Positions 14,050 to 59,899 are shown, counted from the first letter of the stretch. The stretch is 61,311 nt of DNA from Carcharhinus longimanus (GCA_030264375.1 JASCQW010000099.1:57775873-57837183); one strand, 5' to 3'. The notes: generated by a model from the letters alone, not told the origin. Numbers and translations: made by a program.

Positions 14050-14145
14050 TTCTGAAAAAGGGTCATACTCGGCTCAAAACATTAAAGGGGTTTCAGTCTC
14101 TGCAGATGCAGCCAGGCCAGCTGAGTATTTCCAGAACTTTCTGTG
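14050..14145 (+). mobile_element. Penelope-like terminal repeat fragment (family 2) with decayed hammerhead
   Basis: ctgaaaa-a-gggtc-atactc-ggctc-aaaacatt, followed by sequence complementary to 21975-22030. Confidence 0.55.
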
Positions 14146-14768
14146 AATATTAACCTAGATGATTCAGTGAGTCTGCTTGAGGAATCGTCTACAATTCACG
14201 AGGGAAGACGAGGATGAGGTGTTGGAGATGGAACATGACATTTTGGAGTGGAAGTTTCAGCGATGCTAGATTCTGACTGTTCAGCATTCAGACGATGACC
14301 TCAGGGGTTCAGTGATAAAAAGACAAATTCTTGCAGAGCATCAGAACCAAATAAAGGCACAACAAAGATTCTCCGGTGATTGGCAGCAGATGGCAAAGAT
14401 GGCAACAGCATTCAGTACTCTGCAGTATCAGGAAGGATTCTTTATTAAGTATCTCAGAGTGACTGGCAACCAATCTTCTGCACATACCCCATCAAACAAA
14501 GAACGCCCTTTTATAGGCATATTACCCAAACAAGATACAATCTCAAGGGAGACTTTTAAACAAAAGCAGGAGCCTTTAGTTAAAGAGCAAAATATTGTAA
14601 CAATGTTCCACCTTAGATATCCTGCCTAGAAATCCCCCAGCCCTTTGCGATTTGATGTCCAGTGTTTGTAATACAACAGGATACCTCCATTCTTTGGGAT
14701 AATCCCAGACTGATCAGTTAGGCAACAGATATCCCCAGTACTGCGACCCCCTCTGGAATGATCCCTGC

Positions 14769-15543
14769 TAGCTGACAAGTGGCAAATAACATTTGCGCCA
14801 CGCAAATGTCAGGCAATGACCATCACCAATAAGAGACACTCTAACCACTGCCCTTTGACATTCAATGATGTAACCATCACTGAATTCCCCACAGCCAACA
14901 CCCTTGGGATTACCATTAACCAGAAACTCAACTGGACTCACTACATAAACACAGTAGCGACAAGAGCAGGTCGGAGACTAGGAATACTGCGGCAAATAAC
15001 TCACTTCCTGACTCTCCAAAGCCTGTCCACCATCTACAAGGCACAAGTCAGGAGTGTGATGGAGTACTCCCCACTTGCCTGGATGGGTGCAGCTCCAACA
15101 ACACTCAAGAAGCTTGACACCATCCAGGACAAAGCAGCTGCCTGATTGGCATCACATCTACAGACATTCAATTCCTCCACCAGTGACGCTCAGTAACAGC
15201 AGTGAGCACTGCAGCAGCTCACCAAAGATCCTTAATCAGCATCTTCCAAACCCAAGATCACCTCCATCTGGAAGGTCAAGGGCAGTGGATAAATGGGAAC
15301 ACCATCATCTGCAAGTTCCCCTCCAAGCTACTCACCATCCTGACTTGGAAATATATTGCTGTTCCTTTGCAGTTGGTGGGTCAAAACCCTGGAATTCCCT
15401 CCCTAATTGCATTGTTGGTCAACCCATGGACTGCAGCGACTCAAGAAGGCAGCTCACTACCACCTCCTCAAGGACAACTAGGGATGGGCAATAAATGCTG
15501 GCCAACCAGTGGCGCCCATGTCCCATGAATAAGTTAAAAAAAA
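14769..15543 (+). mobile_element. CR1/L2-group LINE 3' end
   Basis: ORF 14816..15145 LGITINQKLNWTHYINTVATRAGRRLGIL...IYKAQVRSVMEYSPLAW; ends in an A-rich tail. Confidence 0.9.
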
Positions 15544-16862
15544 GGCTGCCAATGCAGCTGACCTACGATCGGGGAACCTGTCAGAGCCAAGCTTCATTGT
15601 GAACATTGAAACCCAGAGTTCCGGCTTTCCTGTGAGCTACCTGACCACCCCCACTTCCCCCAATTCCCAGCACATCGGCAAGGAAATCCTCCCACCTTGA
15701 TATCTGACAACATGGTGATTCATCATCCTGCCCTCATTGGATACGGAGGCAGGAATCACAGAGACATGGGCAGCAAAGTAAACAATGCAGAGATTTCCGG
15801 CTCCTAATCCCTGCGATGCAAAGTAAAATATTTTGAAAATGAATCATGTTTGCAACAGGACTTTCTTTTGTAAGGGCATGTAAGCTTCTTTAGCTTGGAT
15901 CTATACGCACAATATTGTGATGATAGGGTGCTCCAGCTTTAACCTTTGAACTCCTACACAAGTTCCCATGCAGCCGCACCCCCACTCAAACGCCTCAAGG
16001 GGCAAATTATATTTTTGACACAACATTGTGTCATTGGCATATTTCACAATGGGAGGAGAGGAAATTGTTGGCATCCAAAAAAGGGAGGCAGAGAATAAGC
16101 GACGATCATTCGGAGAGTTCCAGTTTGAAGATACTGGAGTAGATTCCCTTTGGTGCGTTTCTTGTATCTGGCTGCTGGTGAACTGACCCAGGGAAACTAT
16201 TCTTTTTCAAGAACAGAAGATTCTCCTGGTTCTGAGAGTCCATGTGTTTCAGCTCACTGTTATTTTTAAATTAGCTGTGGGATAAATTAGAGGGTTAAGA
16301 ATAAAACAAAACCATCTGATGGGGAGGCAGGAAACAGATGTGGTTTGTGCTGTGAAAGAATAGTATCAGTTCACTGGCTTTTACAAAGCCACTTTTTAAA
16401 TTCCATTTTGCTGGTCACAAGGAAAATTTATGAGCTGCATTAACTTTTCCACTGCCACTTAATGGTTTAAGAACATAACTTTCGACTCTTTGAACTCTTC
16501 TAAGAGCATTCCAGAGAAATACGCTAAATATGGGAAAGTTTAGAAGTATTGATTTTTATAATCTGGATGCAAGGGACTTAACTGGCTGTGGGGGTCTCTC
16601 AGTTAGTGTCACAGTTGAACACCCCATGGATACGCTATTTTGTTCCATCAGTAAGAACTCACGAGTGGCAAAATAAGAGGAAAAACATTTCTTTAAAGTG
16701 GAATAGATAAAGATTCCAGTGTACACTTTCAAGCATTCTATTTGCATCACAGGCGAAAATTAATAGGTGTATTGAAAAAATGAGATCCTAGAGAAAGAAT
16801 TGCGATACTAGAGCTTGCTGTAACAAAATTAAGTGAAGTTTCCAAACTAGAAGTTACTAAAG

Positions 16863-17163
16863 GGTGGCAAGGTGGCACAGTGGTTAGCACTGCTGCCTCA
16901 CAGCGCCAGGGACCCAGGTTTGATTCCCAGCTTGAGTCATTGCCTGTGCGGAGTCTACACATTCTCCCCGTGTCTGCCAGGGTTTCCTTCGGGTGCTCCA
17001 GTTTCCTTCCACAGTCCGAAAGACATGCTGGTTTAGTGCAAGCCAGGTTAAATTCTCTCTTGGTGTGCCCGAACAGGCGCTGGAGTGTGGTGACTCAGGG
17101 ATTTTCACAGTAACTTCATTGCAATGTTAATGTAAGTCTACCTGCGACATTAATAAATAAACT
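16863..17163 (+). mobile_element. tRNA-derived SINE (tail B)
   Basis: Same head as tail-A SINEs but 3' end cacagtaacttcattgcaatgttaatgtaag...taataaataaa. Confidence 0.9.
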
Positions 17164-19263
17164 TATATAAGAAGAACTGCAATCTGTATTGTAAAGAGGA
17201 ACTTGTACGTAATGGGAAGATTGTGAAATATGCAAAATATTGCCATGCGTGGACTGGCCTTGAGAACCAAATCAAATTGGACTGGTTTGACAGAAACCAT
17301 GATTTTGGTTGATGATAAGGAAACATTATGTATGTGTCCAATCTCTGTAAATTCAATGACTTGTAGAAACTGGATTATATGTTTCCACCATGGGGCCCAT
17401 GCTACGCTTTTAGTAAGTTCATCTATTCCCAAGAACCATCATCTACAGCTGCTTCAGTTCCTCCTAATACAGATCTGGTGTTCTCCAGTTAATAGTCAGA
17501 GTCAAACCAAGTTTAACAAGCTCCTCAATATGATGAATGTTGCTTATTAAAAACCCATAACAAAAAAGGCTCCAAACCAGTGCATAATATAGAAAAGTTA
17601 CTCTTGACATAAAACTCAATTATAGGCATAGTTACAGAAATATTGGACTTTGGGTACAAGAAAAGACTCTCTTATATTTGATGGGAGGGTGTGTTGCACA
17701 ATGGAACCCATTAGCTTAGATATGTCTGACAGTAGGAGCAAGTTCAAAGATATTTGGCACTATAGCTCAAATGAAAATGAAGTATTTATCAAATTTATGA
17801 ATTTCAGGGCCACAAATTTGTTGACAGCCACAATTTTAATAGACATTTCTGTCTTTTGTGCCAAAAATCAATAAAGTTCAATAGGCTAGCAGGTAGTTTT
17901 GTGAAACCCTTTGGGACATTAAGGATGCAGCGTAAGTGCAAGATTTTGAACAAAAGAAGATGATACGGCGAAATGGAATATATTTGTCCATAGGTTGTAA
18001 ATCTTTGTATAAAATAGTTTTGAAAAGCTGGTACTTTTAAGAGGGGTACCATTTGCAAAATGGCTTCCACTACTGGCTGCGGGAAGATTTGATTCTATTT
18101 CTCCAGCCCTGCTGAGGCATTTCAAAAAGAAACCATTTAATCTGTTGATTACTAATAGTTACACGTTAACCAATCCCGAGGTTGTTTCTGCCAAAGTTCT
18201 AGGGAACTGCTTTGGAAATGCTCCATGTTGGTGTTTGAGAAAAGCAATGATCGCATTTTCAAACTGATGTCAGAATCTACTCTGGACAATTTGACTTCAC
18301 CAAAACTATCTCTCACCTTGGAAACATAATCTTTAACCAGTGTTGTGTAAATGCAGATTTGTTGGGTTCCATTGTGCAGGTAATTGCCTGAGTCTTGCAA
18401 GATTGGTCTCTCAGAAGCCAAGGCTGCGTTTAAGAGCCTAAGCAGTATAAACTTTGAGCATATCTGGTATATATGTTTGATTTCAAATGAGCCAGAACTG
18501 ACATAGAAGCAAGACATGGAGGCAAAATTTTAACTCCTAAAAACGGATTGATTGGGAGACAGATCAGAGGTTAAAATTGAGAAAAGATCAGAAATAGAAA
18601 CCAATTTATCTCAAACTTGCATCCTTCCAGTTTAAAAGGAGGCAGAATGAGAGGGGGAGGTGCGAACAATTCAATTGCAGGGGGTAGGTTGGTAACCTAA
18701 ATACTTTAGCATTTGTACAAATATGTGCCTCCATTTTAACAGCGATTCTATTGTTATCCACAGCGACTGGCCTTAGGGAAACCCAACAGGTGAAAGGAAG
18801 TCAGTCCATGAGGTAGGTGCCTTTACAACATTGCTTGTGGGTCATAAGATGCAGAAGCATTTCCTACAGGTTTTCCTGACAAGCTAACCCAGTAAACCAG
18901 TCCCGCCTCACTTCCTAACCAGATCTGTCTGTTTGTACAAACTATCATTGAACAACTATCCCCCCCCTTCCCATCTAGCCTCACTGATGACTATTGAGCA
19001 CCCACTAGGCCACATTTGGACTGCCCTGATCACCTTATTTCCCCTCTTGTGATAGGAAAACTCACCCTGTGACTGCAACCCCTCTCCACTGCCCACCCCT
19101 ACCATAATTAGAGCCCACCACCCATTCTCAGAACACTAACACAGTCACACTGTGATCCCATTGGAAAGTGGCCCCACTCTCCTGTCCTCCCTCACTCACC
19201 ATGAGAATGATTCAAAGTGTCCAGCTAGAGTGAAAATAGGAGAGTTGATTTATTTTTTGGATG

Positions 19264-20283: not shown

Positions 20284-20449
20284 ATATGTCTCCTGTCCTT
20301 CTACGCTTCCTCTCGGGGGAGAGCGCTAGTGTAATGTGCCTGTGACCTGGTGTTGTAGGATTTCCTGCCCGCCAGACTTCTCGCCTGTCAATCTGTGGGA
20401 AATATAAAGATGCATAAGACATTTGAGAAAAGAGTCCTCCTGGACTTTT

Positions 20450-20710
20450 AAAGTTTATTTATTAGTGTCATAAATAGGCATCCATTAACGCTGCAATGAA
20501 GTTACTGTGAAAATCCCTTAGTCGCCACACTCTGGTGCCTGTTCGGGGACACTGAGGGAGAATTTAGTATGGCCAGTGCACATCTTTTGGTCTGTGGGAG
20601 GAAACCGGAGCACCCAGAGAAAACCCATGCAGACATGGGGAGAATGCGCAGACTCCACACAGACCCAAGCTGGGAATCGAACCTGGGTACCTGGCATTGT
20701 GAGGCAGCTA
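20450..20710 (-). mobile_element. tRNA-derived SINE (tail B)
   Basis: Reverse-complement match to 16863-17163. Confidence 0.9.
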
Positions 20711-21397: not shown

Positions 21398-21690
21398 GAC
21401 AGCACTGGCGGCACAGTGGTTAGCACTACTGCCTCACAGCGCCAGGGACCCCGGTTCAATTCTGGCCTCGGGTGACTATGTGGAGTTTGCATGTGCTCCC
21501 CATGTCTGCATGGATCTCTTTTGGGTGCTCTGGTTTCCTCCCAAACTCTAAAGACGTGCAGGTTAGGTGGATTGGCCACGCTAAATTGTCCCTTTGTATC
21601 AGAGGGATTAACAGGGTAAACGCAGAGATGGGGATTCTTGCTGGTGCAGGCTCGATGGGCTGAATGGCTCCCTCTGTGCTGTAGGGATTC
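21398..21690 (+). mobile_element. tRNA-derived SINE (tail A)
   Basis: ggcggcacagtggttagcactactgcctcacagcgccagggaccccggttcaattc head. Confidence 0.9.
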
Positions 21691-21969
21691 CTCGTTCCTG
21701 GAGTTGTAATAACCAACTGAGCCATTGATGGAGCTGAAAAACAGGTGTTGTGATCCCCATGAGGGAGCTGTACACCAAAATAAGCAAATTTACTGGATTA
21801 CTTCCTCCCCAAACTGGAGAAATTATCAACACGATTGCATTTTTTGTAGCTTTTATTTTAACATGCGTCAGAATCAATGTAAATAAACGTGAATTAACAG
21901 ACAAACGATACTTCAGATAAAAATGCAAATTTCACTTATATAGCTGATACAGCAAAGATACATCTTACT

Positions 21970-22172
21970 CAAAACAAAAACAGAAAATGCTGGAAAATCT
22001 CAGCAGGTGTGATAGCATCTGTGGAGAGAGAATAGAGCCAATGGGTGCTTAAGCGAGACCGGAAAATCCCACCCAAGGACAATTGTCTGCCTCTCACCCG
22101 CGCCGATTCTGTGGCGGGTGGGACGGTGGAATTCCGGCTAACATTTTGAGTCTGGATGGCCCTTCATCAGGG
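21970..22172 (-). mobile_element. Penelope-like terminal repeat (family 2) interrupted by a MITE at 22043-22139
   Basis: rc of 22140-22172 = CC-CTGATGA-A-GGGCC-ATCCA-GACTC-AAAATGTT (decayed hammerhead); insert flanked by aat/aac. Confidence 0.65.
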
Positions 22173-22191
22173 TGTTTTGCTTTTTATGCTA

Positions 22192-22508: not shown

Positions 22509-23237
22509 AAGGTCTCTGCCCTAACTGAGTGGTCTCTCATGCAGCAGTGGGTTCTTCCACTGTTGTCAAATTGCCTTCTGAGGTGGGAAAGTAGTCCTAG
22601 TTAAATTTGGCTGCTGATAGACCTGATATTGGCAAAATAGCACAGTGACGGGAAGATATCGAACATCCCCTGGCACCTTCCATCTCTCAGTTTGCCCCTG
22701 AAGGGCTTGGACAATTCAGCCCCTCAGTAACCTGCAGTTACCTGATCTAATTCTTTCCCAGGAACAAGGAACAAAGGACAAAGAAAATTACAGCCCTTTG
22801 CCCCTCCAAGCCTGCACCAACCATACTGCCTGACTTAACCAAAANNNNNNNNNNNNNNNNNNNNNNNNNNNNNNNNNNNNNNNNNNNNNNNNNNNNNNNN
22901 NNNNNNNNNNNNNNNNNNNNNNNNNNNNNNNNNNNNNNNNNNNNACCCCACCCGACCTCTGCCCCTCCAAAGTGGCGACTCTGGGACCACCCCCACCCCT
23001 ACCACCACCCCAATGAACTTACCTGTGTCCCCCAGTGCCGTCCGAGTGGTGAACAGCCCAGAGTGTGCCTGCAAGCCTGAGTGCTCACCTCCCAAAGCCC
23101 CCTCAGGAGTGAAGGTGCCAGGGTCAGCTTTATATGGAGCTGCGGTAGATAGCGCCATTCCCGCAGACAGAGGGTGGCCTCAGAATCGGCCCCCCCTGTA
23201 GAATGAGACAGCACAACAGGAGGCCATTCAGCCCATC

Positions 23238-23648
23238 TACTGCGACACAGCGCTAGTGACCCGGGTTCGATTCCCGGTTTTGGTCACTGTCTGTGTGGAG
23301 TCTGCACGTTCTCCCCATGTCTGCGTGGGTTTCCTCCAGGCGCTCTGGTTTCCTCCCACAGTCTGAAAGATGTGCTGGTTAGGCCGTGCTAAATTCTCTC
23401 TTGGTGAACCTGAATAGGCGCCAGAGTGTGGCGATTAGGCGATTTTCACAGTAAATTCATTGCAGTGTTAATGTAGCCTACTTGTGACTAATAAACAAAC
23501 TTTATTTTACTTTTACTTTACTAGAGGAATTTCACAGTAACTTCATTGCAGCGTTAATGTAAGCCTTATTTGTGACACTAGTAAATAAACTTTACTATTA
23601 TTTTACTAGGGGAGTTTCACTGTAACTTCATTGCAGTGTTAATGTAAG
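23238..23648 (+). mobile_element. tRNA-derived SINE (tail B) with triplicated tail
   Basis: Unit ttcacagtaacttcattgcagtgttaatgtaagc recurs three times. Confidence 0.85.
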
Positions 23649-23649
23649 C

Positions 23650-23880
23650 ATAGAACAGAGAAAATTACAGCACAGGAACAGGCCTTTCGGCCCTCTAAGC
23701 CTGCACTGACCATGCTGCCCGACTGAACTAAAGCACCCTACGCTTCCGGAGACCAGATCCCTCTATTCCCATCCTATTCATGCACTTGTCAAGATGTCCC
23801 TTAAAAGTCACTACCGTATCTGCTTCCACTACCTCGCCCGGCAACAAGTTCCAGGCACCCACTATTCTCTGTGTAAAAAG
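23650..23880 (-). mobile_element. CR1 LINE 3' end
   Basis: acagcacaggaacaggcctttcggccc tail and gttccaggcacccactattctctgtgtaaaaa (rc encodes FTQRIVGAWN). Confidence 0.8.
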
Positions 23881-24739: not shown

Positions 24740-24860
24740 GACTCTCTCCTTTCCTTCTCTATGAACAGTATGCTTCGTCTTTACAGCATGCAAGAAACAA
24801 TACTTTTCACTGTATACTAATACATGTGATAATAATAAATCAAAGCTCAATCAAATCAAA
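24740..24860 (+). mobile_element. LINE 3' tail of another family
   Basis: aacaatacttttcactgtatac...aataataaa followed by tcaaa repeats. Confidence 0.5.
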
Positions 24861-24867
24861 TTCTTTA

Positions 24868-29880: not shown

Positions 29881-30515
29881 ATCATTGAATCTCTACGGTG
29901 CAGAAGGAGGCTTGGGCAGCACGGTGGCACTGCTGCCTCACAGCATCAGGGACCTGGGTTCAATTCCGGCCTCGGGTGACTGTCAGTGTAACGATCGCAC
30001 ATTCTCCCCATGTCTGCGTAGGTTTCCCCTGGGTATTCCGGTTTCCTCCCACACTCCAAAGGTGTTAGGTTGATTGGCCATACTAAATTGCCCCAAGATG
30101 TGTAGGTTAGGGGGCTCAGCAGGGTAAATAGATGGGTCTACGGGGATAGGACTTGGGTGGGATTGTTGTCAGTGCAGGCTCAAGGGGCAGAATGGCCTTC
30201 TTCTGCACTATAAGGATTCTATGGATTCTATGGAGGCCATTTGGCCCACCGAACCTGTACCAACAATAATCCCAGGGAGGGCCTATCCCTGTAAACCCAC
30301 ATATTTACCCTCTGGTTCCCCTGACACTAAGGGGCAATTTAGCATGGCCAATCGACCTAACCTGCACATCTTTGGAAATGGAAGCACCTGGGGGAACCTG
30401 TGCAGATGCGGTGAGGACACGCAAACTCTACACAGACAGTGACCTGAGGCCGGAATTGAACCCTGGTCCCTGGCACTGTGAGGCAACAGTGCGAAACTCT
30501 GTGCCACCATGCCAC
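29881..30515 (-). mobile_element. tRNA-derived SINE (tail A) split by an insertion
   Basis: Tail at 29881-29911 resumes at 30232; head ends near 30515. Confidence 0.85.
29912..30231 (+). mobile_element. tRNA-derived SINE (tail A) nested in an antisense SINE
   Basis: Flanked by the direct repeat ggaggc (29906-29911, 30232-30237). Confidence 0.85.
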
Positions 30516-30842
30516 CTCAAGAGAAATAAATGGGACAGATGAAATAAAATTGACCAAAGTCTAGAGCTAGAGAATCAAATAAGATTGTGAACTCAACACA
30601 GCAAGAATTGAAGGAGAAGGAAAGGCGTGTAAGAATTGAATTTAATGTTTTTTCCATTTTCTATTGAGAAGGTTTAGTATTCTGCACTCACTTTTAGTGC
30701 TCTGTCACTAAGTGCACCATTACCTAGTGATAACCCAGCCAAGTGTGATGAATTGTACAACCTAAGATAACCTCAATTTAAGTACTTGTAAGTACTGGTC
30801 TAGCACGCTGGCACACTTGCTAGCAGTGCTACCTCACAGATG

Positions 30843-31021
30843 ATGATGTGGAGATGCCGGCATTGGACTAGGGTAAACACAGTAAGAAGTCTCACAACAC
30901 CAGGTTAAAGTCCAACAAGTTTATTTGATAGTAAACCCACAAGCTTTCGGGATTTGCCCCTTCGTCAGGTGAGTGACTAAACTTGTTGGACTTCAACCTG
31001 ATTTTGTGAGACTGCTTACTG
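30843..31021. mobile_element. Penelope-like terminal repeat (family 1) with inverted duplication
   Basis: 30881-30923 and 30978-31020 are reverse complements (4 mismatches in 43). Confidence 0.8.
30935..30974 (-). ncRNA. Minimal type I hammerhead ribozyme motif, apparently intact
   Basis: RNA ACUCAC-CUGACGA-A-GGGG-CAAA-UCCC-GAA-AGCU-U-GUGGGU: both core boxes, 6-bp stem I, 4-bp stem II, palindromic AGCU in place of stem III. Confidence 0.8.
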
Positions 31022-31335
31022 GGGGAGTCCAGAACCAGGGGTCACAGTTTGAGATTTCGGGGTAGACCATTTAGGACAGAGATGAGGAGACAATTCTTCA
31101 CCCAAAGAGTGTTGAGCCTGTGGAATTCATTACCACAAAAAGAAGTTGATGCCAAAATATTGAATGTATTCAAGAGACGGCTAGATATAGCACTTGGGGC
31201 AATGGGATTAAAGTTTATGGGGAGAAAGCAGGATTAAGCTATTGAGTTGGACAATTAGCCATAATTGTAATGAATGGCGGAGCAGGTTCAAAGGGGCAAA
31301 TGGCCTCCTCCTGCTCCTATCTTCTATGTTTCTAC
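31021..31335 (+). mobile_element. CR1 LINE 3' end
   Basis: ORF 31049..31237 FRTEMRRQFFTQRVLSLWNSLP. Confidence 0.9.
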
Positions 31336-38814: not shown

Positions 38815-38929
38815 ATCAGGCGCTCATCCCAAAACCGTCAAATCCCGCCGGAGGTCAATGAATCTTTCCGTGGTCCGCCCCTCGCCCGCTCCGATTCCCG
38901 TGGCAGGCGGGATGGTAAAATTCCAACCT
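38815..38929. mobile_element. MITE-like element (120-bp family)
   Basis: Reverse-complement similarity to 12822-12943. Confidence 0.65.
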
Positions 38930-46445: not shown

Positions 46446-48894
46446 TTATTGAAGTGGCTAATTTTCTAGCTGTTTTCTGCTGCACCTTTGAAACAGACGA
46501 GTGCATGTTGTGGCTATTTCTGAGGGAAAATAACATTTAAATCATCGAACTGATTTTAAGCCTCTCATTTTTCTGAATGTTTCCCACCCCTGGAGTTAAT
46601 TAGCTTTAAGTGGTGCTACAGGGGGTAAATTTTGCAAAGTTCTGCTTCCATTGTGGAGTCCCGCCTGATGGACATGCCCTGTGGTGGATGAGTACTGCTG
46701 AGTACAGAACAGCTGACGGTTTTTGATTGGCTGGCAGATCTTGTCCAGTGGAACCTTTGCCCCTGGGGCCCTTGGGCCCGGAGATCCTGCCCCTTTTCCC
46801 AGCTGGCCTGCCAAGTGCCTGAGTGGCAATTAATTTGGCGGGCTTTCTCTGAAAGAGGCGACTTGGGACTCCTATTGATTTTCCAACAAACTGCTGAGAT
46901 CCCATTGCCTCCATTAAATCCAGCCTAGTAACAACAAATCAACTGGCCTATGCAGGGTGTCTCAGAGGGATGAATTGGCTTAAGGTATCTCAGTGTGCTG
47001 GATGTTTGAAAATGGCACTATTCATATAGTCACATCTCACACAAGTGACTTTGTGAACTTGTTGAACCTTGATGAGAGCTACAACACGATGTCTGTTTTG
47101 GGCATATGTGATTGAAACATAGAAATGACTGAGGCCTTTTAGCCCACCTTTAACCAAGGCTAATTCCTCAACTGAAGCTATCTACACGAATGTCTAAAAT
47201 ACTTCCTGGAATTTTCCTTTCCAGTGAATTTCAAATTGAGAAAATATTTGCAATTATTATTAACAAAACATTTTAAAATGAAAAGTGCTTGTGGGCCATT
47301 TGCCCGACCGTGTATAACATGGAGGCTATTAATCAAAGAACAGAAGGATTTAAGCTGTGTCTACAGCATGAAGCTAGCTATCTAAAATCAGTCTCTGTAA
47401 AAAAAAAAATCCACTTATATTCATACCCACATGCACACACACACATATATATAAATATATTTATTGATATAAGATATAGAACTAATTTTCAATTAACCCC
47501 ATATCCTGCTGAATAAATAACCCTTATATATGAGAAGGCAAAACAATTTTACTTTGAGGGTTAAGTTTGTTTGTACACAGGATAAACAAGCATCTGTTAT
47601 ATATTCAAGATGGTGATCACAAGATTCTGAGCTCAGCTCTTAGTCAAAACCTGGCTCTGGTTATTTGCTCCCCTTAGTAGTAATGCTGATGCACGTTCTC
47701 AGGATGTGTGCGAGAGAGACCCACCAAAATGACTGGAGCCTTGTCCAACACCTACATAGTGGAAGCGTTGCTTCATCTTGTGTTTTGAAGACTATTCTCA
47801 GCAGGATCTTGGCACGGGTCCTTCCAGAACTGTTTTCTTTGGAAGAAGCTGCTCTTCCAAGGAGCTGAAAATGGATAAATGTTCAGCAGTCATGAAGCCA
47901 GATGATATGTGCCACATGCATTGCCGTGGGCCCCACAAGTGAAAAGGGAATTGTTGCGAGTTAGAAACTGAATCATTACTGATGATAACAGACTCTATCT
48001 TATTTTATTTATATTTCCCATACGTTTTGGTTGCCTCATCTAAAACTCTACTCCCCTTATCTGAACTCTCACCAATTCCATCAGTCCCGTGCTCACTGAT
48101 TGGGCAATGCCTTAATATTAAAATGTATTCTTTTAAATCGCTGTCTCTATGGAGCAGACTTGGCCAACCTTTCCGCGCCAGGGGCCACTTTTCATTTCTT
48201 CTTCCCACTCGAGGGATCCGCTGAGTAGATTTCTGGAGGGTAAGGTTTGGCACAACTTTAGACATGAATTTCAATAAAAATATTGAGGTAGGAAGAAAAG
48301 AAACATCTTGCTGAGCAAAAATAAAGCTTTTTCAAAATAATAAATTAATCATTTAAAACACTAAGTAATTAATAAAGATGACCATTAGAGTGTGAGGGGG
48401 TCGAATTGTAATTTCCTGGCTCACTCTCAGGTTACTTGTCCATTCTCACCCACGACCACTGTGTGAGTCGCTGTGTGTGTATTGGTGTGTCAGAATTAGA
48501 GTAACCTCCGAGATTGGAAGCAAACAAAACCCTCACACTTTTGTTCACACACACATACTCACACTTGCTCCGAGAACCGGAGCAAGGCAATGCCTTGGAT
48601 TCACATCTGCAGCCACAGAAACAGAATATGTCCTTTTAATGAACATGCATGAAATGCTCATATATGCAAATTGGATTCCCACCGTTCGTCAGGAAGCTCG
48701 ATCCACCTTTAAGCCACCTTGAGAGTCAGGGGAACAGAATTTCAACAGTTTATCTTGCTGTCAGGAAACAGATTTTTTTGCCTCCCGCCATGATTCCTGC
48801 TGCTGGTGGGAGGGGAAAATTCCACCCTTTGTGTTTATAGATTGTTTTGTAACAAATGCTTGAAGTTTAAGGGAATAATTCCAAGTTTGAAATT

Positions 48895-49292
48895 GCACAA
48901 CACTAGCTTAAAGTCTAATAAGTTTATTTGGAATCACGGGCTTTCTGAGCACTGCCCCTTCATCGGATGAGTGGAGGTAGGTTTCACAAAACATGGCATA
49001 TATAGACAAAGACACAATTACAAGATAATTACAGATTAGAATATGAAGAATGGTGGGAAATCGGGTCTTTCCAGGTAATCAAGTCTTTACAGGTACAGAC
49101 AGTGCTCACACTGCAATCCAATCTATAATTTTTTTGTAATTGTGTCTGTCTATGTGTGCCCTATTTGTGAACCTACCTTTCCATTCTCCTGATGAAGGAG
49201 CAGTGCTCCGAAAGTTTGCAATTTCAAATAACCTGGTGTTGTGAGACTTCTTACTGTGACCATCCCAGTCCAATGCTGGCAACACTGCATCA
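48895..49292. mobile_element. Two inverted Penelope-like terminal repeats (family 1), each with a hammerhead motif
   Basis: About 48925-49040 is complementary to about 49120-49230; motifs at 48935-48969 (-) and 49186-49220 (+). Confidence 0.8.
49186..49220 (+). ncRNA. Minimal hammerhead motif, core intact, stem I decayed
   Basis: CUC-CUGAUGA-A-GGAGC-AGU-GCUCC-GAA-AGUU-U-GCA. Confidence 0.6.
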
Positions 49293-51189
49293 AGTTTGAA
49301 ATTAAAACAGAGTAAAATATTGTGATAAATTGCCACACTGGTGACTTCTTTTCTTTTGAAAGGTGAGGCCTGTCTGATCAAGGTCATCTCATCTCCTGGA
49401 ATATTTTGTGCCTACACACAACAGCTCTAAGGTACGATGAGTAAAATGGAACAGTATTATAGCCACCTATCTATAAAACTCGGCTTTGTTCCCAGTTCCA
49501 TGGAGCAGTGACAACACCATGAGAATGTTACACAGGACAGTGGTGACAGAGATCCTCCCCGAAATACTCAGACTGTTGCTATGTTGGCTCCAATATACAA
49601 CAGTCTCCCCTTACCTGGCTTCAGTATGTGGGAATGGCAGGAGGAGAAAGCCAAAGTATGTGTAGACTGAAAGAGTAGCGAAAATGGGGGTAAACTGAAG
49701 TAGTCATGGATAAGCTATGTCTTTTCTCATGGTGAGACCATTCTTCGTCCATCCAGAGTTATAAGAACATAAGAAATAGGAGCAGGAGTAGGCCATCTAG
49801 CCCTTCGAGCCTGCCCCGCCATTCAATAAGATCANNNNNNNNNNNNNNNNNNNNNNNNNNNNNNNNNNNNNNNNNNNNNNNNNNNNNNNNNNNNNNNNNN
49901 NNNNNNNNNNNNNNNNNNNNNNNNNNNNNNNNNNNNNNNNNNNNNNNNNNNNNNNNNNNNNNNNNNNNNNNNNNNNNNNNNNNNNNNNNNNNNNNNNNNN
50001 NNNNNNNNNNNNNNNNNNNNNNNNNNNNNNNNNNNNNNNNNNNNNNNNNNNNNNNNNNNNNNNNNNNNNNNNNNNNNNNNNNNNNNGTCGCCTGCTGCAT
50101 CCCTTTACTGCCGTTGCCTTTTTTCCTTAAAGAGGTACTCTTGCGTTTTCCTTACTGCCTCATTAGCACCCAGCTCCCTTGGTGGAGTTGCCAAGTCTCC
50201 AGAGCCGCTGGCCCCTGTGATATGGCTGGAAGTATCCTGAGCTTGTCTGCCGTCCTTAACTGGATGGTTAGCTTGAAGGTGGCCAGTTATGAGGCTGCCC
50301 TTGGGAGAATAGCTCATCTGCCTAGCTCCTGGCAAGGGCAGGCTCATCAACCCCAGACGTCAGAGTCACCAAGGCTGAGAGAAAATTCTGTCCTTTGATG
50401 GTGTGCTTTGGTTGTGGATAGAGTAAGTGGCATAGAGCGGAATTGTTTGCAGAGGCAGTGGCCCCACCGCACTGGCTGAACAGTCAGGGGTGGGCCTGCC
50501 TCAATTTGCAGAACCAGAAACCAATGATCAGCTTTCATGGCCTCCAGCTGCGAAGCGGCTCAGGTCATGGTTTCCATGCCCATCTGGGAGGATATCCAAC
50601 CAATCAGATGGCAGGCAGCTCTCCAATCAGAGCTGTGTCATCAGCAGCTGAGACTGCAGCCAATCCCCTGCAGCGGGAGCTGCCTGGAGACCGAACTGCA
50701 GGGTAAATGGGATGGTTTTGCTGGAACTAGTCAAGCAGGCCCCAGTGAGGGTGGATAGGGGGTCAACAATAGGGGGACCAGGGGGATGGAGGCAAATCAA
50801 GCCCCGGGCGGTGATCATCACTGGGATGAGGGAGTCACATAGGGTGACCACAAAGCTGGAGGACACCCCCGTCACCTGTACAACTGAGACCATGGCAAGA
50901 CCACTATGGTTTTACCATGCCCAACCATCAGTAAAATATCAATGCAAAATGAGGAAGCCTAATTATTAGCTAATTAATTGGCCACCTTGGGCCCTTGATT
51001 GGCCAACGGCAAAAGGATCAGCCAACACCTATCCTGCCATTGTAAAGAGACAAGCAGGAATTGGGCCTTATGCTGTTGCCATGACACCTGCCATCCTCCT
51101 TCCAGAAGTGTGTAAAATTCCAGCCTTGAGATTGATAGAAATTTCCCACCACACGATATTTCTGTGTTTGAAATACAGATGATATTTGT

Positions 51190-51478
51190 TTATTTATTTA
51201 TTTATTAGTGTCACAAGTAGGCTGACATTAACACTGCAATGAGGTTACTATGAAAATCCTCTAGTCGCCACACTCTGGCGCCTGTTCGGGTACACTGAGG
51301 GAGAATTTAGTACGGCCAACGTACCGAACCAGCATGTCTTTCAGACTGTGGGAGGAAACGGGAGCACCCGAAGGAAACCCGTGCAGACATGGGGAGAACG
51401 CACAGACGGTGCCCCAAACCAGGAATCGAACCTGGGTCCCTGGCATTGTGAGGTAGCAGAGCTAACTACTGTGCCACC
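51190..51478 (-). mobile_element. tRNA-derived SINE (tail B)
   Basis: Reverse-complement match to 16863-17163. Confidence 0.9.
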
Positions 51479-51559
51479 CAATAAATATTGTATTTATATG
51501 TCATATTTGGTGTTGCTTCTCTTTCTGCACCTAGTGGTGCATAAGGCAGGCTTTCATCT

Positions 51560-51810
51560 GTTCCCATAGCAAGCTGTTTATTTTTTCCCTTGGAACAGGA
51601 ATGCCACTCCACATCAAGCATGGCTAACCAGGAGTCTCTCCTGCTCTTGCTATCTGCCTTTGGCATATGTTGGAAGGATTTAGCAAGTTGGTACCCAACC
51701 TGTTTGACATTATTAACACACCTTCCTTGGCCATCAAGTCCTGGGGTGGGACTCGAACCCGAACTTTGGCACAGAAACAGGGACAATGCCGATTGTGTCA
51801 GAAGACCTTC
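51560..51810 (-). mobile_element. Different tRNA-derived SINE-like element
   Basis: B-box rc gggttcgagtccc at about 51748-51761; body unlike the other SINEs. Confidence 0.5.
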
Positions 51811-51892
51811 TACATTTTATATTCCCCTGAATAAGATGATTATGAGCATGTGATTGCCTGAAATCGTCCTCACCACTCATTATCAAGATAAT

Positions 51893-52019
51893 GGGTGGGA
51901 TTTTACAGCCTCACTTGTCCCGAAAATATAAAATTCTGCCTGACATCAACAGGCCTTTCCATGGTTGGCCCCTTGCTCACTCTGGTTCCCGTCACAGTCA
52001 GCTCGGTAAAATTCTAGCC
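51893..52019. mobile_element. MITE-like element with 3-bp TSD
   Basis: Imperfect TIR gggtgggattttac / gtaaaattctagcc; AAT on both sides (51890-51892, 52020-52022). Confidence 0.7.
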
Positions 52020-52149
52020 AATGTGTACATAAACGTTTCTCACAAAATTTTACTGTATACTGAATCACTGGACCTGGCCCTTGCTGCTTGGATAACACTA
52101 CACATATAATCCCAATTCTGTGTCCTCTACCCCTTTAGAATTCTCCCTT

Positions 52150-52585
52150 TGCCATGTGATGGCACAGCAGTCAGCACTGTTGCCTTGCAGCACCAAGGAC
52201 CCAGTTCGATTCCTGGCTTGGGTCACTGTCTATNNNNNNNNNNNNNNNNNNNNNNNNNNNNNNNNNNNNNNNNNNNNNNNNNNNNNNNNNNNNNNNNNNN
52301 NNNNNNNNNNNNNNNNNNNNNNNNNNNNNNNNNCTGGCTTGGGTCACTGTCTATGTGACGTTTGCATATTCCCCCTGTGTCTGTGTGGGTTTGCTCTGGT
52401 TTCTTCTCACGGTCCAAAGACGTGCGGGTTCAATGGATTGGCCATGCCAAATTGCCCCTTAGAGTCAGCAGGATGAGCGAGGGTAAATGCATGGTGTTCT
52501 GAGGATAGGGCCTGAGTGGGATTGTGGTTGATTCAAACTTGATGGGCTGAATGTCCTCCTCTATACTGTATGATTCTATGAATCT
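52150..52585 (+). mobile_element. tRNA-derived SINE (tail A) spanning a gap
   Basis: Head and tail match 11159-11478. Confidence 0.85.
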
Positions 52586-54019
52586 ATCTATTAAAAAAAA
52601 GTTGTTATGTATGTTGCATCCATTGTTTGGACTTTCCATACCAACCTGTGAAATAAATTTCTTCTAATCTCTATTGAGATTGATAAATCTGTTCATATTT
52701 ATGATTCAGTTCTTTAAAAATCAAGATATAATCAAAAAATAACAAACATTCATTTTGTATCCCTCAGAACAAGAATAGCCATTGCTATTGTGTGCAACTG
52801 TTTCATGTGTCTAAGCAGATTAACGGTAACAACATTCCATTGTATATGGCAACCCTTTAATTTCAAAATTGCTTTAATGCAGGGGATTTTATTCAAGAGG
52901 CCCTCAAAGGAAAAGAAAATCTGCTCTATACCACAGGGAATCGGAAACAGAATGAATTTGTTGTAGAACTCCCAGTTCAGCCCAAAATAACTCCATTCTC
53001 GAACCCTTCAGCACTTTTCTCTGTTACTCTGCTGGTCCCTGTGCGTTAGATTTACTGCACTCAGTATCATGTAGTCTCAGATACAATGGGACTTCTCACT
53101 ACTTGAATACAATTACAACCACATGAACATCGCTTGCATCCCCAAGGAAAATTAGGTTACGATTATAAGTCAAGCAAAATTTAAAATCCAATATCAATCA
53201 AATGAAATGGCGCCTGAAAATACCAATTGTATCTGATAATGGATGAAAAATAAAGTAAAACGCCAATATGGTTGGATGGTAAACTAAGAACAAATGCTAA
53301 TGGGAGCCGTAAAAATAAAAACACTGTTGAATGATATGGAGTACAATTATTAATGAAGCGGTGCTATCTTAATATATTCATGTTTTGGGTACATTACCAA
53401 TTCACGATGAATGAAAAATGATCAGAAATGTTCCATAAAACAGCATGCTTAATTACAATTTGGCAAATATCACTGTTTCCAACCCTAATGTTTAGCAGGT
53501 TCGGTTCAGGAGGAATAGGGTTGCACAGTGATGAGGTAAATCACACAGTTACTGCAATATTAGCATTTTCTTTTGCCTACAGTGAGAGCTGCATCACGAA
53601 GACTCACGCCATTCTGTGCAACTGGTCACTTGGGTCAATTTTGTGCTCCTTGCTAACCCATAAAACACTTTCTGGAGGCAGGTGATTCATTTCACAGTGG
53701 ACACTTTTCTTCCGTGAATCATTCTAGCTGGGGGAAGGAAAATTAGCCATCTCATAGTAACCCTTAACCATATGTAGTTCAACTCGCACAATATTTCCAA
53801 AGTGACACTTGCTATGATGTTTTTGATTAGCTCTGAAATATCCTATTAACAGCTGTTTCATATTCTTACCCGATTCTTCTCCCTAATGCAGGAAGAACTC
53901 TTCAAATTTATACTTTGGTGGAATTAAATGTTCCTTATTCTACTGATATATATTTTATAAAGCATTTCTAAAACTCTGAACTGTCTGCTTTTACAAGAGA
54001 AGATTGCTCTCTCTGGCTT

Positions 54020-54318
54020 TAAGTGTATTTATTAGTGTCACGAATAGGCTTCCATTAACACTGTAATGAGGTGAAAATCTTTTAGTTGCCATACTCCGGT
54101 GCCTGTTCGGGTACACTGAGGGAGAATTTAGCATGACCAATGTGCCTAACCAACACATCTTTTGGACTGTGGGAGGTACTCGGAGCACCTGGAGGAAATC
54201 CACACAGACATGGGGAGAGCGTGCAAACTCCACACAGACAGTGACTTAAGCCAGGAATCAAACCCAGGTCCCTGGCGCTATGAGGCAGCAGTGCTAACCA
54301 CTGTGTCTCCTTGCCGCC
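54020..54318 (-). mobile_element. tRNA-derived SINE (tail B)
   Basis: Reverse-complement match to 16863-17163. Confidence 0.9.
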
Positions 54319-55749
54319 TGGCATGACTAGTGTTAAAGAATGAGAAATTATTCTTGAATGAACCTTCTGGAGCCGAAAGGCATCTTTAACCACCAAGAAT
54401 GCTTATTCATTGAATCCATTTAATCCCCAATTTAACCATGGTTTGCTGCTGGATCTTTGCCACTGGAGAGAAGGACAGTCAACAGGAAGATGTTTTCCAG
54501 GGCACTGTAGATGCTGCAGACGACACATTCCCAAAAAGGCAAGCTCATGTCATCCAGAAAGCATTGGCCGGAAATCTCCAGTCTCACTCGTGCCGTTTCC
54601 ATTACCTGCAAGAAGGGAGAATTTGGCATTCTGCCAAATTTCCATTCACAGCAGTGGAACTGGAGAATCCCAACCATGGACGAGGTTGGAAAATCCAACC
54701 CATAGGAAAATTTGCTGGGAATTTAAAAATTGGTCTTATAGTGGTGTGAATTTCCCACAGGATCTTCCTTCATGCCCGCCATGGCAGAGAGGGAAACCCG
54801 CTGGAGATTGGCATGAAACTGATTTGAATTCCATGAATAGGATGCAGATGAAGGCCTAACCCGCCCGCACCTGATTCTCCATGTCTCAAAGACGTGCGAA
54901 AACACATCAATCTAGAACATGTCTGGAAGAGTGTGAAGCGCAGCAGTCAGGATTCATCTGATCATTGCCTGGATCTGCCTCTCGGAGTTTGGCCACCTAA
55001 CCACAGACCCTGGAAAATACCACAGCCGTGGGTGAGGGGACCATAAACAGGTGGATCACTCAGATTTAGTGGGCTGGATTCTCCAACCTACCCCTCACTG
55101 GGATTCTCCAGTCCCACTGCAGTGAACAGAGATTTGGCTGCATGCCAAATTCTCCGTTCTCACTGGTAGTGGAGGCAGGGTGTGAACAGCCAGAAGAATT
55201 GAGGCCAGTGTCATTTAGGAGGTCAACCTTCTAGCTTCAGAGTGCACTTGGAAATGCATTGTCATTTACAGGATAGTCCACCTTCTTACTTCAGTGTTGC
55301 ATTAGCGATGTTGGGCGCCTTTTCAATATGGTGCCCAGATATGGCAGCAGACTGCGCGCCATCATGTCCGTCACACCATGGAATATGTCGCTGAACTCTC
55401 GGGTACGCAATTAATGAGATGGGTGGTGTCAGAAGATATGGGTTGGTTTCCGGCTGGCCTCCGGAGCAGAGAGAGCCAAAAATAAGAATTCCATTGAGGT
55501 ATTTAAAAGGGAATTGGATTGCTATCTGTGCAGGAAGAATATGCAAGCTTATGGAGATAATGCAGGGGAATGGGGCTATGTAGAATGCTCTTTCAGAGAG
55601 CCAGGCATGAGTGAAAGCTGCTATTTGTTCTGTACCCCAATACCAACAACCATCCTTTCCAGTGACCTTCCCACTCTGATGACAGATTTGGCTTTAACTT
55701 GGTTAGGTTAGTAACCAATCCAATAAATCATTGAACAGCCTTCACATCT

Positions 55750-56620
55750 GTTTGTTGCTGCTATATCTCTCACCGTATCAGGACCTGGGCAAACGCCTTT
55801 CACTGTTAATGCACAACCTATGTTCCTGACTTCAGCTTTTTCTTGTCCAACTTGTAATCAGGAAATTGCTGCTTTTAAGCAACTTTTCTTGCAGGTATCC
55901 ATTCTTTGCATCTGGGAGAACTGCCTTGGACAATTGAGGAAGAATTTCTGCAATGGTTGGCGCAGGGTTGTGAGATCTCTGCAAAGCTTTACTGAGGTCC
56001 TTTGGATCTCTGCACACTCTCAGCTTTGTCAGCTTTTCCACTGCGACCGTGCTGTGAATCCAGTCTGTCAGTCTTTTGATTGCTCCCAATTTTTCAGCTT
56101 CCTGTGTCATGTCTTTCAAGCTGCTCTTGAGGGCAGCTGGAACTCTCCTCGGTAGATGTTGATTCGACCTCACACTCTCATCCACTTCAAGATGAGTCAC
56201 CAGGAAGGCACCCACAGTCTGGAGAAAACACCTTTGTAAAGATCAGTTGAGCAGTCAATGTCATGTAAAATTTTGCTAATCTCTCCTGATACACAGAGGG
56301 TCAACATTCCAGGCATTTGAACTTCTTTCAGCTGAGATGAGGGGTTTTGTTTAGTGTCTACTACCTGGAATTGAAGGTCTTCTTATTCCCAGTGCGCTGA
56401 ACTCCACTTATATTTTCCTCTTGGAGTGACTGTCCTTCCACCTGATATCCTCGACTTAATCTTCGATAGCTTTGTGTTTGAGTCACTGTCTGAGCAACTT
56501 GGGAAAATTTTACAAAGCTTCACGATGCTGCATGTACAGCCAGTGTCTACCTCACAATCCACATTAACTTGATGCTCTCCTTGTGCAGTCATCATTACAG
56601 CAGTTACAAACTAATTTCTA
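55750..56620 (-). pseudogene. Ty3/Gypsy pol remnant (protease and RT N-terminus)
   Basis: Protease motif VDTGCTCSIV; RT segment DWIHSTVAVEKLTKLRVCRDPKDLSKALQRSHNPAPTIAEILPQL...DAKNGYLQ. Confidence 0.85.
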
Positions 56621-56709
56621 CCTCAATCACCAATGCTCTACAGCACCAACCTATTCTAATGTGTAGTGAGCTTTGTCAGGATCAGCCTCTGGCATCTCTC
56701 CAGCAGTCA

Positions 56710-56889
56710 TGATGTGGGTATGCCGGCGTTGGACTGGCGTAAACACAGTAAAAAGTTTGACAACACCAGGTTTTAGTCCAACCTATTTATTTGAGTATAT
56801 TATCAAATATTATCCAACCTATTTATTTGAGTATATTATCAAATAAATAGGTTGGACTAAAATCTGGTGTTGTCAGACTTTTTACTGTG
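56710..56889. repeat. Penelope-derived 51-bp inverted repeat with internal direct duplication
   Basis: Arms 56744-56794 and 56839-56889 with 2 mismatches; tccaacctatttatttgagtatattatcaaata occurs twice. Confidence 0.85.
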
Positions 56890-57352
56890 ATCACAACACT
56901 TGACAGTCAATACTTCACCAGCAGCCAACAATTAAGCAGCAAGTTGCCACAGAATATCAATTAGAATATCAATGCATATAATCAAGCTATAGCCAATTGC
57001 TAGACATATTCAGGTAATGCCACTGGTCTGTTTTTTGGAGCAATCACATGTTTTATATATATTTTCTCCTCTGAGTGGCTTGCAGAATCAGCTACATGGT
57101 GAAGACTAAAATCACATGACGATCAGGCATGATTGCAGGGCGTGAAAGTTTCCCTTCCTTAAAAGCCATAAATAGTTCAATTTAAAAAATCTTCTGTCAA
57201 ATTCAATGCTCATTTTTGTCTGCTGTCGGATTTACTTAGTTCAATAACTTGCCAGCTGCTAGTTCAATACCAAAGGCACTACTTTCCCCACAAAGAAACA
57301 TTCCAGCAGAATTTCTGAAACAGAAGCGATTATACTGAATAAATGTACTTAC

Positions 57353-57463
57353 TAAATAGAGGAGGAAAGTGTGGAGGCCCGTGCCTAATCCAACAGAAGA
57401 CAGAATGCCTAAGCCTACCCAATAGGCACACCACAAAAACTTCCTTTCCACAAAACGCACATA
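57353..57463 (-). CDS. VMP1: Vacuole membrane protein 1 (TMEM49), internal coding exon, 111 bp, phase 0-0
   Basis: [37 protein letters not shown] matches the conserved VMP1 motif; pyrimidine tract plus TTGACAG acceptor; GTAAGT donor at 57352-57347. Confidence 0.96.
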
Positions 57464-57964
57464 CTGTCAAAGAAGGAAAACAAAGGCAAAATTAACAAAC
57501 AATTCATTATTGTGTCTTTAACCTAAAAAGCATTCCCATGGTCAAACCTGACTAGGAATAGATGGGGATTTTAGCACAATTATTTAAGTTACAGTTTCAT
57601 GGAAGGACGATGAAAAAGGCAGATTTTAGGTCACAAGATGCCAAGTCCACTCTTGGGAAACACATTACTTTCAAAAGATGTAGCAGGGATGAAAAGTCAT
57701 CAGAAGTGGACGTAAAGCTTTTTCATTCTGAATATCTGATTTATGCCTGGGACGCAGTTCTTCTGTTAGCAGTTGGTCTCTAACAGTCTCTTCAGGTGCC
57801 TACACTTCAGGTATAGGCTCAGACAACCAAATGAATGCAGCCACCAAAGCCTGATTTAGTTGTTGTCTGCTACATGCCCTGCCTGGATCATTGAATGAAC
57901 AGCAACCAAGAACAGACATGGACAGGTAACTCAGGATTTGAAAACTTCTTGCTCTATGTTACCA

Positions 57965-58175
57965 AGTAAGAAGTCTCATAACACCAGGGTAAGGTCCAAC
58001 AAGTTTATTTGGTCGCATGAACTTTTGGAGCGCTGCTCCTTCATCAGGCGAGTGGGAGTTGGGTTCACAAACAGGGCATATATAGACACAAACTCAATTA
58101 CAAGATAATGGATGGAATGTGAGTTCTAACAGGTAATCAAGTCTTTAAGGTACAGACAATGCGAGTAGAAAGAAG
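57965..58175 (-). mobile_element. Penelope-like terminal repeat (family 1) with decayed hammerhead at 58016-58050
   Basis: rc CGC-CTGATGA-A-GGAGC-AGC-GCTCC-AAAAGTTC-ATG; GAAA box mutated. Confidence 0.75.
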
Positions 58176-58288
58176 TTAAATATATTACCAAGCACACCAC
58201 CAGATTCTGCTGTTAGCCACTGAACTAATAGGACATGTCAAATGTAATTATCAATCGAGGAATTCAAGTTAAATTAAAGGAAATATCA

Positions 58289-58328
<40 letters not shown>
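58289..58328. repeat. (AC)n microsatellite
   Basis: About 20 AC units with one interruption. Confidence 0.95.
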
Positions 58329-58330
<2 letters not shown>

Positions 58331-59826
58331 CAAAAACCGGTTTTGAAATTAAACACAGTGCAACAGGAGTGTCATCAGGCAAAAACTAACATCAAGCCAA
58401 GGAGGCTGTGCGTGTGTTAAACGATCACAAAGGGTGAGCACGTAGAACTTAGGTCATAATGGAACAAAAAACCCCTAAAATTTACAGGACATAGTAGATG
58501 GGATGCCAGCTGAGAGCCCTGGATTAGATGCATGAAGGTGATAAAAATATGGATGAGCATTTCAGAAGTAGATAGACTAATGTAACAGAGGAAGTAGGAG
58601 ATGTTACAGAGCTGATGAAGTGGATAAAAGATGGAATTTAGCGTTCTGAAAATTATTTTCACTATTCTTTTCACGGTTTAGATTTTTTAATAGCAATATT
58701 ATTGGATAAAATTTCCCAGTTCCTCACCTAAATGATCAATTGAAGAGAATCCATTGTTTAAGTTAACTATTCTTGACGGATTTCCACAGAAGTGAACTGA
58801 TTGTAATGAGCCAGTCTATTGGAAATACTGGAACTTTTAGAGTTTTAATGCTATTTAAGACTTATAGTGTCATTAATAAAGGGTAATGACAATTAATTAA
58901 GGGAAAATGTTTATAGGGCTAGAAGGAAAGAACGATATGGTACTATTTGGTTAGCTCCACTAAAGAGCTTGCACAGATGTGATGCGTCCAATTGTCTCCT
59001 TCTGCTGTACTATCCTAGGATTCTACAAATTGAACAGCAATGTAAAAGCAAAATCAGTTCAATAATTTCAGGTGAAATTGAACAGCAAGAATAAGTGTGA
59101 CAGAGAGCCTCATTACAGAAACATTTCTCTCTCACACACAAGGTTTGTGTGCTAGTGTTGTTGGTGGGAACCATGGCTTCTGTATTCTTGGCATGGACCT
59201 AAAGTGGAGGATGGGCATGTGCCCAGAGGGCTGTTAATATGCCTGCGTGAAAATTAAAACTGACACCTGCAATTGGGTCCTCCTGCCTTCTTGCCAGTTC
59301 TGGAACTGGAACAAGCTATTAACACAGTGCCTGCAGTTCAGTTGGGTGACAGCGTGACAATAAGTTACTCTGGCCTTTTCCCCAAATCTGGTTGCAAACC
59401 CTTTGCATGCTGTCAATAATGAATTAAAAATTAAAGTCCCGCTTTACAACTCAGAACAGCGTACAAAAACTTTTTTTTAAAAAATGCAGGAATCACACAA
59501 TGCAAGCATGGGAATGGCTACGTTTACATGAGTACTTCCGTCAACGTTGCTTTTTCCTGCCATGTTCAAAATCCACTGATATTCAGTTACAATAAATTGG
59601 GATGAATCTGTCAGATTCTGATATATTTATTTTTCAGTTTCCTGACTCCAAACTGTCTCCTTCTAGTTCTGCCTACCTCCAGGCGTGGGAATGACTGCAT
59701 TCACATGAGCACTGGCTCTACTCATCTTTTACTCCTTTTATTTATCTGATGCACAACCCATAATTATCTAATCCTGAATGTATATTCCGTATTATGGTCC
59801 TGGAAGATCCTGATTAAAGCTAGGAT

Positions 59827-59899
59827 ACAGTAAAAAGTCTGACAACACCAGGTTTTAGTCCAACCTATTTATTTGATAATATTCTCACAAGCTTTCGGG
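59827..59899 (-). mobile_element. Penelope-like terminal repeat truncated by a gap, with hammerhead 3' half
   Basis: Near-identical to the 56744-56889 arms; rc of 59886-59899 = CCC-GAAAGCTT-GTG, as in the 30935 motif. Confidence 0.75.

Follow-up and report, generated by a model that had tools for sequence, protein, structure and literature searches.

A 61,311-nucleotide stretch of the genome of the shark Carcharhinus longimanus (GCA_030264375.1, JASCQW010000099.1:57775873-57837183; hereafter the window) carries seven hammerhead ribozyme motifs together with a single coding exon of the gene VMP1. Our explanation, which we hold with high confidence, is that the motifs mark six independent 5'-truncated insertions from two families of Penelope-like elements (PLEs), here called A and B, whose 3' ends form a minimal type I hammerhead; that the parent elements likely experienced selection for self-cleavage by the motif, whose inserted copies now decay in an apparently neutral way; and that the VMP1 exon was likely misplaced in the assembly.

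Hammerhead motifs of the window

The seven sites and their strands, proposed from the sequence alone, are all confirmed in the sequence, and each is recovered by nhmmer profiles made from copies elsewhere in the genome. The same profiles add two inverted tails that lack the hammerhead (30976-31044 and the pair at 56703-56916), and the assignment of the motifs to two families is borne out by both the sequence and the family profiles. Repeats are abundant in the window, which also has eight gaps of at least 100 N; its relevant parts are as follows.

14044-14144, + strand: 3' end of a family B PLE with a decayed hammerhead at 14050-14085 (G8>A and G12>A, altered palindrome); nhmmer match to the family-B profile at E=6e-13
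21965-22172, - strand: 3' end of a family B PLE with a decayed hammerhead at 22140-22172 (G12>A and a mismatch in stem II); nhmmer matches 22137-22170 and 21965-22043
22044-22136, within 21965-22172: insertion of about 93 bp splitting the family B copy
30841-31044, - strand: 3' end of a family A PLE bearing the window's sole intact minimal hammerhead (30935-30974), and a + strand inverted tail fragment from 30976; profiles and pattern
48878-49298, both strands: single head-to-head family A insertion flanked by 11-bp direct repeats (48882, 49291); profiles and sequence
48935-48969, - strand, within 48878-49298: arm with decayed hammerhead (U4>C, C11.1>A)
49186-49220, + strand, within 48878-49298: arm with intact boxes, palindrome and stem I damaged
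56703-56916, both strands: two young family A tails in inverted orientation, both lacking the hammerhead, with an exact tandem duplication of 36 bp at the junction in the middle; profiles
57353-57463, - strand: exon of 111 nt in phase 0-0, coding for VMP1 residues 104-140; AG/GT ends and protein match
57945-58162, - strand: 3' end of a family A PLE with a decayed hammerhead at 58016-58050 (G12>A, altered palindrome); family profile
59822-59899, - strand: young family A PLE 3' end ending at the gap at 59900, visible 3' half of the hammerhead (59886-59899) unchanged; profile and pattern

The tail pair at 56703-56916 was not in the list of the sequence-only reading.

An additional A after the first box, lying between nucleotides 9 and 10.1, is present in all six complete motifs, as had been noted. 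The box itself (CUGANGA) is exact in four of the six, having been lost at 14050 (G8>A) and 48935 (U4>C), and pattern matching finds both CUGANGA and GAAA kept in two, at 30935 and 49186. The claim that stem II differs between copies yet stays paired holds at 30935, 49186, 58016 and 14050, but not at 48935, where the closing pair is G-A, nor at 22140, which has one C-A. The palindrome is kept at 30935 and 59886 only, and the copy at 49186 combines intact boxes with a changed palindrome and a stem I of 1 bp, which leaves 30935-30974 alone with boxes, stem II, palindrome and stem I all in order. A single head-to-head insertion with an 11-bp direct repeat accounts for the motifs at both 48935 and 49186, one on each arm, so the seven motifs correspond to six insertions.

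It is also important to consider whether the cluster itself is unusual. Copies were taken regardless of intactness from 1.43 Mb of non-N sequence (the window and its 100-kb flanks, the VMP1 gene and six other large genes), and 122 of them span the hammerhead, or 5.2 per 60 kb with the window included. Seven motifs in the window are thus unremarkable, with P(>=7)=0.26. An Rfam scan of the window returned no hammerhead family at E<=10, which is expected if the Rfam hammerhead models need helix III. Monomer folds of the six complete motifs give z values from -1.96 to +0.82, the motif being too short for an informative z.

The minimal hammerhead at family level

On the evidence of sequence, the hammerhead is real at the level of the families. 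Family A cores with both boxes, U16.1-H17 and a free stem II occur 15,913 times in the genome (7,937 on the + strand and 7,976 on the - strand), far above chance when set against the single match of the reversed pattern. Stem II was tallied by hand in the first 100 listed matches, counting copies rather than events and with G10.1-C11.1 fixed by the pattern. The pair 10.2/11.2 is G-C in 73 of these, A-U in 13, G-U in 2, A-C in 8 and other in 4, while the pair 10.3/11.3 is A-U in 53, G-C in 30, G-U in 13, A-C in 2 and other in 2. The G-C/A-U switches at both pairs support stem II covariation at subfamily level, as read from profile hidden Markov models and hand tallies; since the listed copies belong to few subfamilies, the independent switches are also few.

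For family B, a tighter first pattern gave 1 match, and a pattern with positions 3 and 8 left free gave 838 genome-wide. Among 100 listed matches these positions are U3-A8 in 63, C3-G8 in 21, C3-A8 in 11 and U3-G8 in 5. Family B contains a compensated U3-A8 core subfamily, with examples downstream of GIY-YIG endonuclease frames (loci L123, L126 and L128). A literature search for U3-A8 hammerheads returned PMC4209133 alone, the available text of which describes the variant in Schistosoma and reports thousands of minimal hammerhead ribozyme (min-HHR) copies in coelacanth and Xenopus.

The palindrome that would build helix III is AGCU in family A and ACGU in family B. According to the same excerpts, min-HHRs have a nucleotide between 9 and 10.1, a palindrome, and opposite-strand pairs 100-700 bp apart, so that the extra A of the shark motifs is a known trait of the published class and the proposal of a minimal hammerhead stands; monomers are described there as not cleaving and dimers as cleaving at a low level (PMC4209133). 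Two copies of the 30935 motif are predicted to cofold into a dimer shape, at -25.2 kcal/mol compared to 2 x -11.1 kcal/mol for the monomers.

Penelope-like origin of the two families

Searching the genome for GIY-YIG yielded 50 matches, and 30 of these loci were examined. Downstream of the GIY-YIG frame, and in the same orientation, there is a family A end at 4 of the 30 (L112, L121, L124, L127) and a family B end at 7 (L113, L119, L123, L125, L126, L128, L129), with a spacing of 350-600 bp between the open reading frame (ORF) and the family end. At L126 (family B) reverse transcriptase (RT) and GIY-YIG share a single frame, with weak Pfam matches (E=0.0095 and 0.001). A CX4CxxC motif precedes the endonuclease (EN) in both families (L112 and L121 for A, L126 for B), and a CX2-5CxxC linker between RT and EN is given as a mark of Neptune and Nematis in the available portion of PMC8557442. 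For EN-bearing (EN+) PLEs that portion also describes copies truncated at the 5' end, a neighboring copy in inverse orientation and problems for short-read assembly. All three recur here, the 5' truncation with an adjacent inverted copy at 30841-31044, 48878-49298 and 56703-56916. The upstream GIY-YIG frames and the truncated and inverted structure together argue that the window copies are pseudo-long terminal repeat (pLTR) stumps of endonuclease-bearing PLEs, in support of the origin suggested from the sequence alone. It counts against this assignment that no RT was seen for family A at the GIY-YIG loci. A full-length family A element was not recovered.

The short palindromic units might alternatively be non-autonomous elements, retrozyme- or MITE-like (MITE, miniature inverted-repeat transposable element), that move as units instead of being truncated PLE ends. 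The two-armed unit at 48878-49298 with its 11-bp direct repeat has the look of such an element, but arm lengths and junctions vary among copies, both at the 30 loci and in the window, no head-to-tail arrays occur in the window, and inverted 5'-truncated copies are standard for PLEs in the text seen of PMC8557442. We consider movement as units highly improbable and retain truncated PLE ends as the explanation.

The same loci include elements outside families A and B. Uninterrupted RT plus GIY-YIG frames of 423-615 aa lie on short unplaced contigs at L103, L105, L106, L111 and L118, three of which carry hammerhead motifs of their own that match neither family; these are apparently young members of other PLE families, or foreign contigs. 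L110 has a 624-aa frame with GIY-YIG N-terminal of an RT-like region, as in permuted Naiad-type PLEs.

Decay of the copies

The sequence-only reading held that decay repeatedly hits the CG at the junction of stem II and GAAA. The junction is indeed changed in 4 of the 7 motifs (three CG>CA, one CG>AG), but no faster than other CpGs: family A keeps it in 32/67 copies, compared with 44/96 for a pair of CpGs in the tail (P=0.87), and the family B figures are 13/70 for the junction and 19/75 for the next CpG (P=0.42). The loss of the junction CG is ordinary CpG decay. Outside CpGs, mismatches in the core (ten positions other than G12) and in the tail occur at similar rates, with 47/570 vs. 241/2536 in family A (P=0.38) and 82/470 vs. 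385/2067 in family B (P=0.60). Equal loss of core and tail with CpGs going first is the expectation for methyl-CpG decay without selection.

As published work on PLEs suggests, an element would be copied by reverse transcription from its 3' end, most copies stopping after 100-300 bp and often acquiring an inverted second copy. In tandem parents, by the published model, the palindromes (AGCU or ACGU) of two hammerheads would pair to give helix III, and cleavage would follow. Once a copy has inserted, its catalytic positions mutate as fast as the adjoining tail, CpG sites first, and the copies would have no effect on a host transcript. We infer selection on the motif in the parent elements, and the stem II switches together with a vertebrate U3-A8 subfamily give family-level support for such structural selection on the PLE hammerhead.

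The VMP1 exon and the assembly

The exon at 57353-57463 is 97% identical to zebra shark VMP1 in a protein search, its best named matches are shark proteins, and its frame is open; it was left unnamed by a Pfam VTT_dom search of the genome, by Pfam and PDB scans of its frame, and by the ESM Atlas. When zebra shark VMP1 is searched against the genome, the other ten coding exons lie in order on the minus strand of another assembly sequence, C139, at 6.36-6.48 Mb, with mir-21 just downstream, and C99, which contains the window, holds one exon; the 100 kb on either side of the window contain no further VMP1 exon. The C139 exons that flank the missing one end at residue 103 and start at residue 141, and exon 104-140 fits exactly between them. 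The 41 kb separating them, at the site where the gene is split (G000:C139:6437041-6478247), contains nine gaps of at least 100 N. The exon at 57353-57463 is the only copy in the assembly. Since it is the one VMP1 exon missing on C139, it probably sits on a scaffold piece that the genome assembly has misplaced.

The block that contains the exon is continuous from 50087 to 59899, with a 21-bp overlap across the gap at 52234. The misplaced part thus covers at least 50087-59899, probably 31998-59899 by way of a sized gap, and possibly the whole window. A Pfam scan of 87 window ORFs gave 0 matches, so no second gene bounds the block.

The exon could also be a true duplicate or translocated copy on C99, with no assembly error, and the window would then not be a VMP1 intron at all. 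Misplacement is weakened by the fact that no C139 gap edge matches or continues the block ends, and the contigs of four public runs over 58400-59899 break at a repeat and do not bridge the gap at 59900. A second copy is nevertheless difficult to reconcile with an exon that is single in the assembly, fits exactly between residues 103 and 141, and keeps an open frame and AG/GT ends, or with a C139 interval as rich in gaps as this one; we regard a duplicate as unlikely and misplacement as the probable case. As to the gaps themselves, 100-N gaps with overlapping flanks (6583-6682 and 52234-52333 in the window, 6439670 and 6461052 on C139) are false gaps, and many others are bordered by young repeats, among them young family A ends.

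Possible effects on the host gene

Five of the motifs were said to lie in the VMP1 sense direction, from which it was proposed that copies in one pre-mRNA could pair. Five do lie on the strand of the exon, which is not unusual for seven motifs (P=0.45). The pairing is unsupported: the lone exon is likely misplaced, and the one intact sense copy has no intact partner. The probable block contains three sense copies, of which 48935 lacks U4 and C11.1, 58016 lacks G12, and 59886 runs into a gap. If the whole window is taken as VMP1 intron, 30935 is the sole visibly intact sense copy, and its only possible partner is 59886, 29 kb off and half unseen. The copy at 22140 is decayed and belongs to family B with the other palindrome; because one family is of the ACGU type and the other of the AGCU type, dimers between them should lack helix III under the dimer model of PMC4209133, as far as its available text sets it out. 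In the VMP1 gene on C139, 4 hammerhead-spanning copies are sense and 8 antisense, none of them intact, and one further copy at a gap edge has both boxes and is antisense. The idea of a host effect is thus unsupported at the VMP1 locus.

A broader version of the idea is that an intact copy lying sense in an intron pairs with another copy, either within one pre-mRNA or in trans with one of the roughly 16,000 intact family A cores that share a palindrome, and cuts the host transcript, such copies being either selected against or put to regulatory use; VMP1 would be one case. We examined strand in VMP1 and six genes defined by same-strand LDLa or Sushi Pfam clusters (1.18 Mb non-N; gene names are labels). 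The copies as a whole are unbiased, with 84 sense and 89 antisense of 173 (P=0.76), a lack of strand bias being what the sequence-only reading had named as an argument against host impact, and those that span the hammerhead number 53 sense and 49 antisense. Intact copies are too few for the strand comparison, with 1 sense and 2 antisense strictly intact in the profile-based class. Core intactness is likewise even, at 8/45 sense vs. 9/41 antisense overall, 7/27 vs. 6/22 in family A, and 1/18 vs. 3/19 in family B. In family A, the younger and more intact of the two, the mean number of core mismatches is 0.89 sense vs. 0.86 antisense.

Several points stand on the other side. Core mismatches in family B are 2.78 of 10 sense vs. 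1.21 antisense (n=18 and 19; P=0.006), although half of the sense mismatches are alignment gaps, mostly from 5' truncation, and substitutions alone give P=0.38. G8 is substituted in 7/14 sense vs. 2/19 antisense family B copies (P=0.02) in a post hoc comparison, and this excess is the sole hint of a selection footprint against intact sense copies. The host strand of six of the seven genes was taken from the same-strand Pfam clusters, the youngest copies fall at assembly gaps and are undercounted, and intact copies by direct pattern number 2 sense vs. 3 antisense (3 vs. 4 when relaxed), which has little power. Strand bias would also be diluted by head-to-head insertions, with one arm on each strand, and by misplaced contigs.

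The dimer-shaped cofold predicted for the 30935 motif is in favor of such cutting, and Xenopus introns are reported to be depleted of retrozymes, strand not being analyzed in the accessible part of that work (bioRxiv 10.64898/2026.07.22.740005). The equal strand counts and core intactness, the even mismatches of family A, the partnerless intact copy of the window, and the low or absent cleavage described for published min-HHRs all speak against it. Selection against or use of intact sense copies in host introns seems very unlikely, and so does a genome-wide footprint of cutting in cis or in trans by the family A cores. A literature search combining hammerhead ribozyme, intron, strand bias and Penelope found nothing. 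Shark genomes hold enough intact copies that, given a long-read assembly with annotation, any cost of these ribozymes to the host could be tested for.

Other repeats of the window

The insertion at 22044-22136 is GC-rich and lies just after the cleavage site of the family B copy, and part of it resembles 38873-38924. Over 59822-59899, summed contig depth reaches about 10^6 in all four public runs, which marks the stretch as a very high-copy repeat. An abundant repeat resembling a short interspersed nuclear element (SINE) has many copies (11167-11458, 16862-17164, 21407-21683, 23218-23676, 29911-30211, 52158-52570 and others), one of them with an 85-bp tandem tail at 23436-23649; it appears to resemble the shark element HE1.

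Comparison with known systems

The analysis adds shark families to the documented class of PLE hammerheads, identifies VMP1 as the site of a probable assembly error, and otherwise adds little. A literature search for hammerhead, Penelope and shark found no shark PLE by title or abstract, and the supplements of PMC4209133, PMC8557442 and bioRxiv 10.64898/2026.07.22.740005 may list shark families.

Vertebrate non-LTR (long terminal repeat) retrozymes share with the shark copies a PLE-derived hammerhead unit, and one chondrichthyan is reported among their hosts in the available text (bioRxiv 10.64898/2026.07.22.740005). Those retrozymes are arranged head-to-tail in tandem, whereas the shark copies are single or head-to-head, with no tandem array in the window. 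With EN+ PLEs of the Neptune/Nematis type, as described in the accessible part of PMC8557442, the shark families share a C-terminal GIY-YIG with CCHH residues, a CX4CxxC linker and a hammerhead in the pLTR, along with 5' truncation, adjacent inverted copies and difficulty for short-read assembly; the linker motif is compatible with either Neptune or Nematis.

As for the ribozyme, the hosts named in the excerpts of PMC4209133 are fishes, coelacanth, Xenopus and reptiles, in contrast to the shark here, and the U3-A8 variant given there for Schistosoma is found here in a shark subfamily. In the remaining respects the shark motifs agree with the min-HHRs of those excerpts, sharing the type I layout with helix III absent, the palindromic 15.2-16.2, the extra nucleotide between 9 and 10.1 and the G10.1-C11.1 pair, as well as copy numbers in the thousands per genome, truncated copies that mostly stand alone, opposite-strand pairs spaced by 100-700 bp and the presence of a U3-A8 variant (PMC4209133).

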